Shown: positions 24,838 to 28,356, numbered from the stretch's first letter. The stretch is DNA of 64,000 nt from a virus (IMGVR_UViG_2703718819_000006); one strand, 5' to 3'. Numbers and translations are program-made. Notes: a model not told the origin generated them from the sequence alone.

Positions 24838-27800
24838 TCACGACTTAATAGTTTCTGCTACGTCGGCTAATATCGCTTCTAGTCGTTCTCCCTCTTCAGG
24901 TCTGAAGTAAAGAATGTTGGGGTTAAACCCGTAAAAGACAGTAACGTCAAGGTCTGGAAGATACTCCTTCCTGCCGACCAAATCGGATGGCTTGTTTTTG
25001 TTGTTAAACAATGAAGTTGCCCGGCTGCCACACGTCAGCACATAGGTCGGACGCACCAGATTGATCTCTTCACGCATAAAGTCGGTGAACTGGCCGATCT
25101 CGTCTTTGGTGTAGTCCTTTTCTTTGTCTTTAACCTTCTTGCAAACGCCTGTGACATAGAGATCGCCCATGCGCAAATCCCCAGCCGTCAACAGCTTGGC
25201 CTTAAAATCGTCGTATCCGTTCTCCATAAAGTAACCGGTTCGAGCATCATTGCCGTTCGCATTGTCCAGAATGATCATGATTTTCGGCTTAATACCAATG
25301 CTGGGGCGGATTAGTTCATCACCTAAGCCCATTTCAGCCGCCATCCGCGTCATGAGTACGTTAATCTCAGCCGAACGTTTGGGGTTCATCTCAAACGGAC
25401 GTGAGGCTTTAACTGCGTCTATGACAAGGTTTCCCATCAATTCAGCCTGGTCGCGTAGGCGCTCTGGATCAGTTGCTGGCAGACTGCCTGGCTCGATGGA
25501 TGCAAACGCCCCTACTTTTTGCAGCGATTCGCGCACTCGACTATTACAGGCACGTTTCTCGACAGCTTCTTCGAATTGCGCAAGTGACTCGAATTTGCCA
25601 CCAACCTTTTCTCGCGCTCTCATGATGGCCTGGCAGCCATTCTCAGAACACCCCTTCACAGCAGAGAAGGGCGCATACAGCACCTGGCTGCCATCTTCAA
25701 GCGTGCGGATCTCAATTCGGTTAGATGACACGTTAACGTCTGGTGGCAATACGCGAATACCATAGGTCAGCGCATCTTTAACCAGCCCCTGGTGTTTATC
25801 TTCGCCAAGAATAGTGAGAGCAGCAGCGAAAAACTCTGCGGGATAATGAGTTTTCAACCACATAGATTGATAGCTGATTAAGGAGTAAGCAACAGAGTGT
25901 GATTTGTTGAACTGGTAGGCACCATTCTTTTCGAATGCGGTCCATATCTCCTTCGCTTTCATCTCTGATAGCCCTGGATGTGACGCTGTAACGCGTACTG
26001 CGTTTATAGGTAGTTTTGCGCCGTACTCAAGTGCCTCTTCGACAGTTTTCAGAGTTCCGTCTTCGCATTTAAAATGTTCCGCACGGTGAATGCGCTGTGT
26101 AGTGCCATCTTCCAGCTCAACGTCTATCCAGCCAGCTTGAGCCTGAACGATGAACTTCTCGCCCATGCTCTTCATTTTTTCCATGTCTTTTTTGCCGATC
26201 GCTTTACGAACGCCGTCAGCTTCAGCCATTGTGAAGCCAGCAAGCAATCGAGTCGCGTTCATCGTCTGTTCCTGATAGAGAATCACGCCATTTGTTTCTG
26301 CGGTAAGTTCATCAAGAACGGGGTGTAATGATTCCGGCGTCATAAAGCCTTTGGCTACAGAAACATAGTCATCCAACATGCCTGACTGAATTGGCCCCGG
26401 CCGGAAGAGCGCAGTCGTAGCAACAACCGTTTTAAAGCTCATTGGCTCAATTCCACCACCTAAATCTTTAAGCAGCTTGCGCATTGGGCCTGATTCAAGC
26501 TGGAAAACACCTTGAGTGTACCCAGCAGCAAAACCATCCAGCACCTTGCGATCTTCAAGAGAAATGGCATCAAGATTGATATCTTCACCTGTGTTCTCTT
26601 TTATGTAGCGTTTTGCACTATCGAGCAAATCGAGAGTTGCCAGACCAAGTACGTCCAGCTTAATTAGGCCCATAGCCTCGCAGTAACGCTTGTCAAATGC
26701 GATACAACGCGCGTCACCACGGCGTTCAACCGGTGTACGTTCTGTCAGAGGAACACCTGCTACGATCATCCCTGCCGCATGTCTACCAAAGCCACGCATA
26801 AGACTTTGTAACTTGCAGGCAGCATTGAATGCATCAGGGTATTTTGTCGCGTATTTGTCGAGACTTGCCAGTTGTTCGCGCAGCTCCTCCAATGGAAGGC
26901 TATCATCCTCGACGTTCTTCAGCTCTTTTGATACCGCCATATCTGCGGACTCCACACCATAAATACGAGCGGTATCACGTAGTGCAGAGGCTGCGCCCAG
27001 GTAGGTGAAGTTCGGAATGCCTGCAACGTAATCTTCGCCGTAGCGTTCATTCAGATACTCGATCACCTCATGGCGACGTGCCTGGCTGAAGTCCAAGTCC
27101 GCATCCGGCAAGTCGAGACGCTCAGGGTTGATGAAACGCTCAAACAGAAGACCGTGACGGATTGGGTCGACGTTGGTTATGCCTATGCACCACGCCACCA
27201 GAGAACCGGCAGAGGAACCACGACCAGGCCCGACAGGAATGCCAGTTTCACGACTGTGATTCATCAGATCGCGTACCATCAGGAAGTAACCACAAAATCC
27301 CAGGCGAGTCAGCGTGTCCATTTCGTACTTTAGCCGCTCAACATAAACCCTGTTCTCAGAAGCAGGTGGTGTGTAGCCAAACTCTTTTGTGGTAAGACGT
27401 TTACGCAGCCCTGCAACAGCCAGTTTCATCAGCGTTGCAGGTTCGTCGTCTGCCATCTTGGGCAGTGCTGGTGGCAATTCATGCCAGCGCCATGTGCAGG
27501 CATCGATAATGGAGTCCTGCGTTGTTGAGGCCATTGCAGCTGTTACCGGCACATCCATGCGAACGGAGAAGGCTTTAAGCGCCTCAAGGAGATGGCGACG
27601 ACCATTGATGGCGTTATCTCGCTGGTGGGGGATACGCAGACGATGCGGCTGGTCGATTTTTATGTTGTTCGTAACCATGTGCGCAATGTCTTTAATGTCT
27701 GCATCGTCGATCGATTCGTAATAAGCGGGATAGAACGCCACTGGCTCTATTTTCAATGCGCTGGCGACTTTCATCGCCCGGACGTTAATCTGGTCGTAGA

Positions 27801-28356
27801 ATGGGGTAGGGTGCGGATAAACCACACTATAGAAGTTGTCTTTTCCACCCGCTGTAATCAGTGAGCTTATGATTTTTGCAAAATCGTTGCGTTGGAACAC
27901 GCTACCGATGTCGGAAGTGAGCAGGATGATGTTGCCTTTGGCATATGTAGAAACCAACTGTTCGAGCGAGAGACGCGGTACAAAGTAGAACTGTTCTCGT
28001 GTGTTGGCCACCGTCATTAGTTCGCAGATGTCGCGATATCCTTGCTCATTTTTAATTAGAGCGGTAAACGAGTAGTTACGTCCTCGCTCTAATGATTCCA
28101 TACATCCCTTAGACTCTTTAGCAATTTTAGCCCGGTACTCGTATGTGGGATCATCAACGATATTTAGTTTCACACCACAAATAACCGCCATGTCGTCACC
28201 AGCGGCACGTTGTAGTGGAATAACGCTCGCAATATTCATGCTATCTGCTGAAATTACAGCGGTGTAGCCAGCTTCTCTGGCAATCTTCACCGCGTTTTCT
28301 GCTTTTAGAGCCGACTCCCCAAGTGAGAAGTCAGTTCGAACCATCAGTGCCTTCAT
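24838..28356 (-). CDS. dnaE: DNA polymerase III alpha-like replicative polymerase (DnaE family)
   Basis: 1172 aa; core motif GIPVGPGRGSSAGSLVAWCIGITNVDP matches DnaE (GPGRGSGAGSLVAY...) as recalled; N-terminal PHP-like region appears to lack the usual His cluster. Confidence 0.9.
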   Translation of the reverse strand: MKALMVRTDFSLGESALKAENAVKIAREAGYTAVISADSMNIASVIPLQRAAGDDMAVICGVKLNIVDDPTYEYRAKIAKESKGCMESLERGRNYSFTALIKNEQGYRDICELMTVANTREQFYFVPRLSLEQLVSTYAKGNIILLTSDIGSVFQRNDFAKIISSLITAGGKDNFYSVVYPHPTPFYDQINVRAMKVASALKIEPVAFYPAYYESIDDADIKDIAHMVTNNIKIDQPHRLRIPHQRDNAINGRRHLLEALKAFSVRMDVPVTAAMASTTQDSIIDACTWRWHELPPALPKMADDEPATLMKLAVAGLRKRLTTKEFGYTPPASENRVYVERLKYEMDTLTRLGFCGYFLMVRDLMNHSRETGIPVGPGRGSSAGSLVAWCIGITNVDPIRHGLLFERFINPERLDLPDADLDFSQARRHEVIEYLNERYGEDYVAGIPNFTYLGAASALRDTARIYGVESADMAVSKELKNVEDDSLPLEELREQLASLDKYATKYPDAFNAACKLQSLMRGFGRHAAGMIVAGVPLTERTPVERRGDARCIAFDKRYCEAMGLIKLDVLGLATLDLLDSAKRYIKENTGEDINLDAISLEDRKVLDGFAAGYTQGVFQLESGPMRKLLKDLGGGIEPMSFKTVVATTALFRPGPIQSGMLDDYVSVAKGFMTPESLHPVLDELTAETNGVILYQEQTMNATRLLAGFTMAEADGVRKAIGKKDMEKMKSMGEKFIVQAQAGWIDVELEDGTTQRIHRAEHFKCEDGTLKTVEEALEYGAKLPINAVRVTASHPGLSEMKAKEIWTAFEKNGAYQFNKSHSVAYSLISYQSMWLKTHYPAEFFAAALTILGEDKHQGLVKDALTYGIRVLPPDVNVSSNRIEIRTLEDGSQVLYAPFSAVKGCSENGCQAIMRAREKVGGKFESLAQFEEAVEKRACNSRVRESLQKVGAFASIEPGSLPATDPERLRDQAELMGNLVIDAVKASRPFEMNPKRSAEINVLMTRMAAEMGLGDELIRPSIGIKPKIMIILDNANGNDARTGYFMENGYDDFKAKLLTAGDLRMGDLYVTGVCKKVKDKEKDYTKDEIGQFTDFMREEINLVRPTYVLTCGSRATSLFNNKNKPSDLVGRKEYLPDLDVTVFYGFNPNILYFRPEEGERLEAILADVAETIKS

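Follow-up and report, generated by a model that had tools for sequence, protein, structure and literature searches.

Results

The window analyzed here, a 64,000-nucleotide stretch of viral DNA (IMGVR_UViG_2703718819_000006), is an SSU5-like phage-plasmid of Enterobacterales. Its dnaE-type polymerase gene occupies positions 24838 to 28356 on the minus strand, as do the neighboring genes and protein domains mapped below, and was delimited as an ORF of 1,172 codons plus a stop codon with Pfam and NCBIfam domain matches. A 67-aa ORF of unknown function (phrog_6337; 28331 to 28534) overlaps the start of dnaE and separates it from a cobS-like AAA+ gene (28537 to 29772; Pfam AAA_5) and a cobT-like VWA gene (29868 to 31976; Pfam CobT and CobT_C). 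This cobS/cobT-like pair (28537 to 31976), immediately upstream of dnaE, lies in an order common to nickie, RHEph10, and L013. Downstream of dnaE, Pfam matches identified a gp32-like SSB (23135 to 24163; gp32) and a 5′-3′ flap exonuclease (22130 to 23125; 5_3_exonuc_N and 5_3_exonuc). Pfam likewise assigned an ATP-dependent ligase (38806 to 40128), a DnaG-like primase (41517 to 42767), and a DnaB-like helicase (42777 to 44117), a region (38806 to 44117) syntenic with the SSU5 and nickie annotations; in the case of nickie, a lytic Pseudomonas phage, synteny across the replication module runs from DnaB to DHFR. The element also carries dTMP-supply genes (ThyA, DHFR, NrdAB, and MazG-like) and a recombination module (RecA-like, UvsY-like, SbcCD, and RuvC-like). 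This dnaE was found in 244 of 5,426 complete E. coli genomes, on plasmids and never on the chromosome. A literature search found no paper linking SSU5 or pHCM2 with Pol III.

The encoded protein begins with MKALMVRTDFSLGES, and database proteins named DNA polymerase III subunit alpha are 99% identical to it. Four Pfam families scored above their gathering scores, in the order PHP, palm/thumb, fingers, and (HhH)2: PF02811 (PHP; residues 6 to 175, 49.5 bits), PF07733 (DNA_pol3_alpha; residues 309 to 571, E = 1.3e-73), PF17657 (finger domain; residues 574 to 740, E = 2.6e-44), and PF14579 (HHH_6; residues 866 to 955, E = 1.7e-16). The last three correspond to the palm/thumb polymerase core at 26644 to 27432, the first part of the fingers at 26137 to 26637, and the (HhH)2 or beta-binding domain at 25492 to 25761. 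TIGR00594, the NCBIfam model of the Pol III alpha superfamily, matched at 632 bits against a cut-off of 434; the DnaE1 equivalog models all fell below their cut-offs (e.g., PRK05673, 678 bits versus 1,002). The AF2 model (pLDDT 90.2) matched Pol III alpha of Taq, M. tuberculosis, and E. coli with E values down to 2e-60, the best structural matches being 2HPI (Foldseek, E = 2e-60) and 7PU7. Catalytic residues D418, D420, and D568 of the core align with D401, D403, and D555 of E. coli and are invariant across a 54-sequence alignment. The 1,172-aa ORF is a genuine C-family (DnaE-type) polymerase gene with an intact active site; the Pfam, NCBIfam, and structure matches uphold the initial annotation of a Pol III alpha homolog rather than a PolA or PolB enzyme. 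A pseudogene or relic was also considered and was ruled out by the intact ORF and retained catalytic residues, as well as by thousands of near-identical copies and conservation down to 30% identity.

Residues 742 to 794 in the fingers (25975 to 26133) form a clade-specific 53-aa insertion, a small beta-rich module by AF2 secondary structure, which according to the alignment is absent from E. coli, nickie, RHEph10, and P0127. Many relatives have a dnaE that is interrupted at this insertion site by an HNH endonuclease gene (split locus L007) and consists of a 787-aa part and a 389-aa part, with the break in the fingers near the FNKSH motif; the window copy is unsplit. The interrupting gene is a free-standing HNH gene (NUMOD4 plus HNH_3) that has a start and a stop of its own. 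For this reason, and because the flanks lack intein motifs, an intein at the split site was rejected. NCBIfam models for the split halves of the cyanobacterial intein-split DnaE also match the two dnaE parts; however, the split in the relatives comes from the HNH gene and bears no intein signature.

The PHP domain (residues 1 to 300; 27457 to 28356) is catalytically degenerate. We mapped its nine metal positions by alignment to M. tuberculosis DnaE1 and E. coli DnaE. In E. coli these positions are R10, H12, D19, F44, D69, H83, G134, D201, and R203, and the ligand consensus is H, H, D/H, H, E, H, C/H, D/N, and H (PMC3666897, Table 1). The window protein has M5, R7, E14, S39, K63, S96, S148, P210, and Y212 at the corresponding positions, with the seventh (S148) falling on D149 instead in a second alignment. 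It retains none of the nine canonical ligands, compared with four of nine in E. coli DnaE. The same complete loss was found in 19 clade members, down to 45% identity, and a similarly degenerate PHP domain in about 45 of 56 full-length DnaE-UDG representatives; more distant DnaE-UDG relatives (e.g., P0257, P0266, and P0272, from contigs of 4.8 to 10.6 kb) retain all nine ligands. The domain is also very divergent from that of E. coli, whose structures aligned with the polymerase in phmmer only from residue 97 on. The initial annotation had noted a lack of the His-rich metal ligands, and the alignments, in which no intact catalytic site was found, bear this out more strongly than it was stated. 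Because none of the nine metal ligands is left, the domain, which keeps the PHP fold, cannot act as an exonuclease of the Taq or M. tuberculosis type. Taq and M. tuberculosis DnaE1, with which the window polymerase has its overall fold in common, possess all nine ligands and proofread through PHP, according to the pertinent passages of PMC3666897 and PMC5636811.

The window polymerase resembles E. coli Pol III alpha (DnaE1) in its PHP-palm-thumb-fingers-HhH core, its catalytic aspartates, and its variant, inactive PHP domain, but it lacks the OB fold and the tau-binding domain. These are replaced by a family-4-UDG-like domain (residues 985 to 1172; 24841 to 25404), detected with TIGR00758 (E = 2.7e-7; 30.5 bits versus a cut-off of 125.3), by profile matches to 1L9G, 1UI0, and 4ZBX (E about 1e-7), and by structure. 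The AF2 model of the domain (pLDDT 87) matched 4ZBY, 4ZBX, 1L9G, 1UI0, and UdgX in Foldseek at E values of 1e-11 to 1e-9, and TM scores of 0.66 to 0.80 against family-4 UDG structures indicate that the UDG alpha/beta/alpha fold is present, as in T. maritima TM0511, T. thermophilus UDGA, S. tokodaii UDG, and UdgX. Unlike the family-4 enzymes, the window domain is fused to a polymerase, and its motif A reads LDNAN (D1031) rather than GE[AG]PG, VTG (G1070) replaces the uracil-binding Asn of TN(A)V, and FNP (N1145) replaces the motif B His of HPS. Among 54 family members, the N91-equivalent position is never Asn (G, S, T, or A) and the motif B position never His (N, S, or T). The acidic residue aligned with the Glu of motif A (D1031) is retained in most family members; the stacking Phe of the PF(V/M) element is retained in the window domain, and the motif B loop region is strongly conserved, with invariant F, P, L, F, P, and E. 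Family-4 UDGs bind a 4Fe-4S cluster via four cysteines, a set missing from the window domain, which has only two (C1072 and C1109). In family-4 UDGs and UdgX, the Asn and the motif B His hydrogen-bond uracil (PMC10359453), and the missing residues suggest that the C-terminal domain is a catalytically dead UDG fold.

A DnaE with a UDG-type C-terminus is an already known polymerase type, and the DnaE-UDG architecture was described in 2014 (Timinskas et al., PMC3919608). As presented in the relevant passages of that paper, the “DnaEX” UDG variant is an additional DnaE of some Yersinia pestis and Salmonella enterica strains; in it, a UDG domain of archaeal type (PF03167) takes the place of the OB and C-terminal domains. 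In architecture and host group (enterobacteria), the window protein agrees with this variant and shows no substantive difference from it as portrayed there; those passages mention neither the loss of all nine PHP ligands nor that of the UDG catalytic residues, and they do not place the polymerase on a phage-plasmid or link it to a cognate exonuclease. UDG-like domains also recur in phage A-family polymerases, as seen in BFVD matches from Bacillus phage SP-15, Vibrio phage HCMJ, Rhizobium phage RHph_Y65, and Enterococcus phages. In SPO1-type and other phage A-family polymerases, a UDG-like fold is likewise covalently joined to a replicative polymerase. In contrast to these PolA-UDG fusions, the partner in the window is a C-family polymerase, and the UDG-like domain is C-terminal in place of the OB and tau-binding domains.

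All 12 close phage records holding this dnaE, SSU5 among them, also have a gene for a 185-aa DEDDh exonuclease of the RNase_T/DnaQ family. Its position can be read from E. coli plasmid p4_0.2: the first 2.5 kb of the window match this plasmid at 99.7% identity, and the exonuclease gene lies there 917 to 1,474 bases beyond window position 1, to the left of the window edge; in SSU5, the gene is ∼26 kb downstream of dnaE. The exonuclease carries Exo I, II, and III-epsilon motifs, and its best family and structure matches are to Pol III epsilon (PRK05711, 1.1e-19; PDB 1J53, 7.9e-11). It accompanies the DnaE-UDG C-terminus in every one of the 31 complete phage genomes (SSU5-like, Nickievirus, RHEph10-like, Stenotrophomonas, and Xanthomonas) that hold this C-terminus. 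Among complete E. coli genomes searched by megablast, the exonuclease gene was found in 204, compared to 244 for this dnaE, and the exonuclease site shows an IS rearrangement in at least one plasmid. As with E. coli DnaE1 and epsilon (DnaQ), the DEDDh exonuclease is separate from the polymerase and encoded elsewhere in the genome. Unlike E. coli epsilon, the element's enzyme stops at residue 185, without the Q-linker, the QTSMAF clamp motif, or the alpha-binding peptide. The phage exonucleases end at about residues 185 to 189 with a short tail, G-[FLY]-[FV]-x-x-P; they have no counterpart of epsilon residues 190 to 243 and lack the PHP-binding C-terminal peptide of E. coli epsilon. Loss of PHP ligands co-evolves with a separate epsilon subunit (PMC3666897). 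A dead PHP domain paired with a separate epsilon exonuclease is a rule already established for bacteria, and the present case is an ordinary one: the PHP ligands are lost, and a DnaQ-like gene is present in all 12 close phage records and all 31 complete phage genomes of the wider family and adjoins the window edge in p4_0.2.

No DnaQ, clamp, or clamp-loader family was detected among the window ORFs with Pfam or PHROGs. For clamp and loader, the Pfam search covered nearly all window ORFs of at least about 60 aa and ten unannotated SSU5 proteins outside the window; the PHROGs search covered ten function-unknown proteins (eight from the window and two from SSU5), and a few proteins were searched with NCBIfam. 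None of these searches returned a clamp or loader. The SSU5 annotation names no clamp, loader, or DnaQ gene apart from the exonuclease, and no clamp or loader gene was seen in the examined 40-kb replication region of nickie. A very divergent clamp may be among the conserved function-unknown proteins, such as SSU5_107 (399 aa) or the product of 40662 to 41438 in the window (258 aa). Conservation points to QAELMG (residues 970 to 975; 25432 to 25449) as a candidate beta-clamp-binding motif of the form Q-x-x-L-hydrophobic. Four of its residues (Q, L, M, and G) do not vary within the SSU5-like clade, and the wider-family consensus at this site is DQxELLPG. The clamp consensus given in a passage of PMC3919608 is QL[SD]LF, with key positions 1, 4, and 5; QAELM (residues 970 to 974), which follows the HhH domain, agrees with this consensus at positions 1 and 4 and has Met at position 5. 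The assignment is ambiguous, as a MAFFT multiple alignment pairs QAELMGNL with the RAALMNSL helix of E. coli rather than with QADMF. A pairwise E. coli alignment that placed QADMF inside the UDG-like domain was rejected as spurious.

The initial annotation had seen no DnaQ, clamp, or clamp loader in the window and had suggested that host Pol III subunits are borrowed. Its observation on the window stands by Pfam, PHROGs, and tblastn, in which the element's exonuclease and E. coli epsilon gave nothing better than E = 2.8. The inference of borrowed proofreading is not supported, because an epsilon-like exonuclease gene of the element itself lies just outside the window; this DEDDh gene, recovered when the dnaQ search was carried beyond the window, is what that annotation had itself named as evidence against its reading. 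With a UDG-like domain standing where DnaE1 has its OB and tau-binding C-terminal domains, the polymerase is not expected to couple to the host clamp loader via tau as DnaE1 does. It may still use the host beta clamp, given that no clamp was found encoded and that Q-x-E-L-[LM] is a conserved candidate motif.

Discussion

We consider it likely that this dnaE encodes the alpha-like subunit of a phage C-family replicase with a dead PHP domain, an epsilon of its own acting in trans, and a dead UDG-like C-terminus. Proofreading would be supplied by the 185-aa epsilon-like DEDDh exonuclease, and the PHP domain would be retained as a scaffold, whether structural or for docking, as it is in E. coli Pol III. 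In lytic replication, the polymerase would work with the element's DnaB-like helicase, primase, gp32-like SSB, flap nuclease, and ligase. Processivity could come either from the host beta clamp, bound via the conserved QAELM motif, or from a DNA-binding UDG-like domain. Several observations weigh against this reading. The exonuclease lacks the PHP-binding peptide of epsilon and lies ∼26 kb from dnaE, and its complex with the polymerase is a proposal. Among complete E. coli genomes, it is found in fewer than dnaE is, and its site is rearranged in at least one plasmid. In addition, the clamp-motif assignment is ambiguous, and inactivity of the UDG-like domain is read from missing residues.

The earlier picture of a bare alpha subunit that recruits host epsilon, beta clamp, and clamp loader for processivity and accuracy accords with the absence of DnaQ, clamp, and loader genes from the window and, the exonuclease aside, from the SSU5 annotation. 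It also accords with the conserved Q-x-E-L-[LM] after HhH, where DnaE enzymes bear the clamp motif. We nevertheless regard it as unlikely, given the element's own epsilon-like exonuclease in every complete phage genome of the set, the missing tau-binding domain and OB fold, a PHP domain very divergent from that of E. coli, and a QAELM that may correspond to the RAALMNSL helix rather than QADMF. Alternatively, the polymerase could be clamp independent, with the dead UDG-like domain built in as a module for DNA binding or processivity, or for sensing uracil in the template, by analogy with the vaccinia UDG D4, which is cited, within A20-D4, as a processivity factor (PMC4889955). The domain occupies the position of the ssDNA-binding OB fold, keeps the UDG fold and motif B loop while having lost the uracil-contacting residues, and has counterparts in phage A-family polymerases, and no clamp or loader gene was seen in the SSU5-like element or the nickie replication region. 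However, the comparison with D4 is an analogy and the conserved Q-x-E-L-[LM] could bind a clamp instead, and we judge clamp independence quite unlikely.

Two further readings concern catalysis. An active glycosylase with a non-canonical active site, coupling base excision to replication, would be in keeping with the acidic D1031 at the motif A Glu position, the retained stacking Phe, and the element's heavy investment in dTMP supply. It is very improbable in view of the uracil-bonding Asn and His, never present in 54 family members, the lack of four Cys for an Fe-S cluster, and a TIGR00758 score far below the cut-off. That the polymerase is instead a DnaE2-like, error-prone enzyme without proofreading, and that the DnaQ-like exonuclease serves recombination or repair, we hold to be highly improbable. 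The exonuclease gene is indeed not adjacent to dnaE, its product lacks the alpha-binding tail of epsilon, and the recombination module is rich. However, polymerase and exonuclease co-occur strictly across distant phage genera, replication must be accurate in an element of about 110 kb, and the nine PHP ligands kept by distant DnaE-UDG members suggest that a proofreading route is normally retained.

A further reading would make this polymerase lineage a self-contained, clamp-independent replicase in which two former enzymes have become scaffolds. The dead PHP domain would dock the tail-less phage epsilon via a new interface, possibly involving the G-[FL]-F-x-x-P tail; the dead UDG-like domain, in the place of OB and tau, would be a DNA tether or template-uracil sensor, like vaccinia D4; and the CobS/CobT-like AAA+/VWA pair, with its invariable linkage, would help to assemble or load the replisome. 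Taken as a joint claim, this is decidedly unlikely to hold in every part. Worth testing are the source of processivity in a Pol III alpha that has neither OB and tau-binding domains nor a phage clamp, and the stable association of the polymerase with a catalytically stripped UDG fold and the CobS/CobT pair.

About 4.5% of complete E. coli genomes harbor an SSU5-like phage-plasmid, and these elements bring with them resistance genes such as dfrA51. Given its own predicted epsilon-like exonuclease, the element probably does not depend on the host for proofreading, and such self-supplied replication functions bear on the host range and stability of SSU5-like phage-plasmids.

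The polymerase is an intact C-family enzyme whose PHP domain has lost its metal ligands

The dnaE open reading frame (24838-28356, minus strand; N terminus MKALMVRTDFSLGES) runs for 1172 codons without interruption and is a genuine DnaE-type gene. Pfam detected a PHP domain (aa 6-175), DNA_pol3_alpha (aa 309-571, E = 1.3e-73), the finger domain (aa 574-740), HHH_6 (aa 866-955), and a weak UDG match (aa 1054-1122); NCBIfam assigned aa 1053-1168 to family-4 UDG (E = 2.7e-7). NCBIfam recognized the protein as a member of the Pol III alpha superfamily (TIGR00594, 632 bits versus a cutoff of 434), and it scored below the cutoff of every DnaE1 equivalog model. 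By alignment, the catalytic aspartates are kept (D418, D420, and D568, corresponding to E. coli D401, D403, and D555), and the structures nearest to an AF2 model of the whole polymerase (pLDDT 90.2, pTM 0.82) were the Taq, M. tuberculosis, and E. coli Pol III alpha subunits (best E = 2e-60). These data show that the C-family polymerase is intact and bear out the initial annotation of a Pol III alpha homologue.

Nine metal positions of the PHP domain have been tabulated, with the consensus H, H, D/H, H, E, H, C/H, D/N, H and the E. coli residues R10, H12, D19, F44, D69, H83, G134, D201, and R203 (PMC3666897). Alignments made with phmmer (to M. tuberculosis DnaE1) and MAFFT (including E. coli DnaE) placed M5, R7, E14, S39, K63, S96, S148, P210, and Y212 of the window polymerase at these positions. 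Whereas E. coli DnaE retains four of the ligands, the window polymerase retains none of the nine, so that the degeneration suspected in the initial annotation goes further than in E. coli. The loss is common to 19 clade members with identity down to 45%, which share the pattern aliphatic or other non-ligand, R, E, S/T, K/R, S, S/A, P, Y. Positions 2 and 5 are basic, which agrees with the published finding that Arg frequently takes the place of the lost metals (PMC3666897). Because the flanking motifs RTDFSLGES and AFYPAYY are strongly conserved in the clade, the domain appears to be under selection as a scaffold. As judged from the aligned residues, the PHP domain thus lacks a metal site. The PHP domain is degenerate in about 45 of the full-length representatives of DnaE with the C-terminal UDG-like domain (DnaE-UDG); all nine ligands are present in at least eight others, which are more distant, and one representative falls in between.

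An epsilon-like exonuclease accompanies the polymerase

As the initial annotation had stated, the window itself holds no DnaQ-like gene detectable with Pfam, PHROGs, or tblastn (best E = 2.8). Its further suggestion that proofreading is borrowed from the host is contradicted by related elements. Gene 086 of Salmonella phage SSU5 encodes a 185-aa protein of the RNase_T/DnaQ family. The version on E. coli plasmids contains the Exo I (D-I-E), Exo II (N-G-E-A-F-D), and Exo III-epsilon (H-x4-D) motifs, and, among families and structures alike, it matches Pol III epsilon best (PRK05711, 1.1e-19; PDB 1J53, 7.9e-11). The first 2.5 kb of the window are 99.7% identical to the E. coli plasmid p4_0.2, in which the exonuclease gene lies just beyond the window edge, 917-1474 bases past window position 1.

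The exonuclease was found in all 12 phage records with this dnaE. Moreover, the DnaE C-terminal domain and the exonuclease (38-45% identity or better) occurred in the same 31 complete phage genomes, comprising SSU5-like phages, the Pseudomonas nickie group, the Rhizobium RHEph10 group, two Stenotrophomonas phages, and Xanthomonas JGB6. Genomes with this polymerase therefore conserve an epsilon-like DEDDh exonuclease, in agreement with published evidence that a separate epsilon subunit and the loss of PHP ligands coevolve (PMC3666897). Given this strict co-occurrence and its match to the published pattern, proofreading in trans by the element's own exonuclease is the best reading. The exonuclease gene is not adjacent to dnaE; by megablast it was present in 204 E. 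coli genomes versus 244 for dnaE, and one plasmid showed an IS rearrangement at the exonuclease site.

Unlike E. coli epsilon, the phage exonuclease has no C-terminal alpha-binding peptide. In all four phage groups, the DEDDh domain of the exonuclease is followed directly by a short, conserved terminal tail, G-[FLY]-[FV]-x-x-P, located where E. coli epsilon has its linker, clamp motif, and alpha-binding peptide. The tailed proteins are encoded outside the window, at 2527-3084 (minus strand) in related locus L004, 1474-2040 in L015, 1477-2046 in L016, and 1498-2058 in L017. The tail may be a docking peptide.

A UDG-like domain replaces the C-terminal domains of Pol III alpha

Residues ~985-1172 of the polymerase contain neither an OB fold nor a tau-binding domain. 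A profile built on these residues in 12 clade members matched the family-4 UDG structures 1L9G, 1VK2, 1UI0, and 4ZBX (E ~1e-7), and an AF2 model of the domain (pLDDT 87) matched 4ZBY, 4ZBX, 1L9G, and UdgX (E = 1e-11 to 1e-9; TM 0.66-0.80). Where family-4 UDGs have motif A GE[AG]PG, the window protein has LDNAN, in which D1031 occupies the aligned Glu position; the TN-element Asn corresponds to G1070 and the motif B His to N1145. This Asn and His hydrogen-bond uracil in family-4 UDGs and UdgX (PMC10359453), and among 54 family members the G1070-type position was never Asn and the N1145-type position never His. With only two cysteines in the domain, a 4Fe-4S cluster is excluded. The C-terminal domain is thus a UDG fold predicted to lack the canonical catalytic equipment. 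DnaE-UDG forms a large family, for which a library-wide HMM search (E ≤ 1e-10) gave 138 representatives at 50% identity, and UDG-like folds recur in phage A-family polymerases too. Timinskas et al. 2014 (PMC3919608) describe an additional, unusual DnaE, found in certain strains of Y. pestis and S. enterica, that has an archaeal-type UDG domain in place of the OB fold and CTD.

The initial annotation had also proposed that the polymerase may borrow host Pol III subunits. Its observation that clamp and clamp loader are absent held for the window and extended to the unannotated SSU5 proteins tested. The borrowing itself fared less well: proofreading is better assigned to the element's own exonuclease, and, because the tau-binding domain is missing, the polymerase is not expected to couple to the host clamp loader via tau. 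The polymerase may use the host beta clamp. The peptide QAELMG (aa 970-975), invariant in the clade and DQxELLPG across the wider family, agrees with the clamp-binding consensus QL[SD]LF (PMC3919608) at positions 1 and 4 and is hydrophobic at position 5; in the multiple alignment, however, its E. coli counterpart is the helix RAALMNSL rather than QADMF. Alternatively, processivity could come from DNA tethering by the UDG-like domain.

dnaE lies in the replication module of a phage-plasmid

The window dnaE is 98.6% identical to that of Escherichia phage CMS-2020a, 96.6% to that of PhiR41_1, and 84.8% to that of SSU5. Of 5426 complete E. coli genomes, 244 carry the gene, in each case on a plasmid and never on the chromosome. 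These phage identities and the plasmid-only occurrence indicate that the window is part of an SSU5-like phage-plasmid. The same-strand neighbours of dnaE form a complete phage replication module: a DnaB-like helicase, DnaG-like primase, ATP-dependent ligase, gp32-like SSB, flap exonuclease, RecA-like gene, SbcCD, NrdAB, ThyA, and dfrA51, with cobT-like, cobS-like, and 67-aa open reading frames preceding dnaE in that order. A Rep3-type plasmid initiator is encoded on the opposite strand.

The order cobT-like (VWA), cobS-like (AAA+ MoxR type), small ORF(s), dnaE (window 28331-31976, minus strand) is kept from SSU5-like phage-plasmids to the lytic Pseudomonas phage nickie (L010, 13265-20672). A distant metagenomic contig (L013, 186-10039) has the same order and a DnaE with an intact PHP domain, and in Rhizobium phage RHEph10 (L011) cobS lies ~1.4 kb upstream of dnaE. 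Directly upstream of the window block, a region at 32920-35298 (minus strand) encodes a tyrosine integrase (32920-34023) and a toxin of the YafO family (34343-34759). Since the SSU5 annotation has no counterpart there, the region appears to be a variable accessory island. The RecA/UvsX-like recombinase gene (19522-21861, minus strand; 779 aa) contains an intein with a LAGLIDADG endonuclease; its 358-aa homologue in related locus L007 is intein-free. Between dnaE and the SSB gene, a 143-aa ORF (24281-24712, minus strand) weakly matches a UvsY-like mediator (phrog_231, E = 1e-4), consistent with a T4-like trio of SSB, mediator, and recombinase. The trimethoprim-resistant dihydrofolate reductase gene dfrA51 (219-695, minus strand), known from SSU5-type phage-plasmids (PMC12217456), sits in a nucleotide metabolism block with ThyA, NrdAB, and a MazG-like pyrophosphohydrolase.

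The window copy of dnaE is unsplit. In many relatives, a free-standing HNH homing endonuclease gene (NUMOD4 plus HNH_3, 231 aa) divides it into genes of 787 and 389 aa (L007, 2918-7170). The endonuclease gene lies within a 53-aa insertion (aa 742-794; window 25975-26133) restricted to the enterobacterial clade. The cluster holding the C-terminal half has 1459 member sequences, and C-terminal halves of ~390 aa are likewise frequent among distant representatives. Some relatives encoded outside the window (P0117, P0123, P0138, and P0002) are chimeric ORFs that join DnaE N-terminal parts to RecA sequence or an HNH N terminus to the DnaE UDG-like C terminus. These suggest deletions or recombination among the mobile-element-bearing genes of the module, or else assembly artefacts.

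Significance of the polymerase for the element

In proteobacterial DnaE1, a degenerate PHP domain with a separate epsilon subunit is textbook knowledge. Because of this, and because dnaE is annotated in thousands of database entries and its unusual architecture appeared in the 2014 paper, the enzyme is of a known kind; the first observation was correct. Possibly undescribed before are the loss of all nine PHP ligands, the loss of UDG catalytic residues across the family, the strict co-occurrence of polymerase and exonuclease over phage genera, the conserved cobT-cobS-dnaE linkage, and the HNH-split form of dnaE. In the mechanism that we propose, the epsilon-like exonuclease would be the proofreading partner of the polymerase, and the dead PHP domain would act as a structural or docking scaffold. 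The polymerase would serve lytic replication with the element's helicase, primase, SSB, flap nuclease, and ligase, and replication in plasmid mode would be the task of the Rep3 initiator with host machinery.
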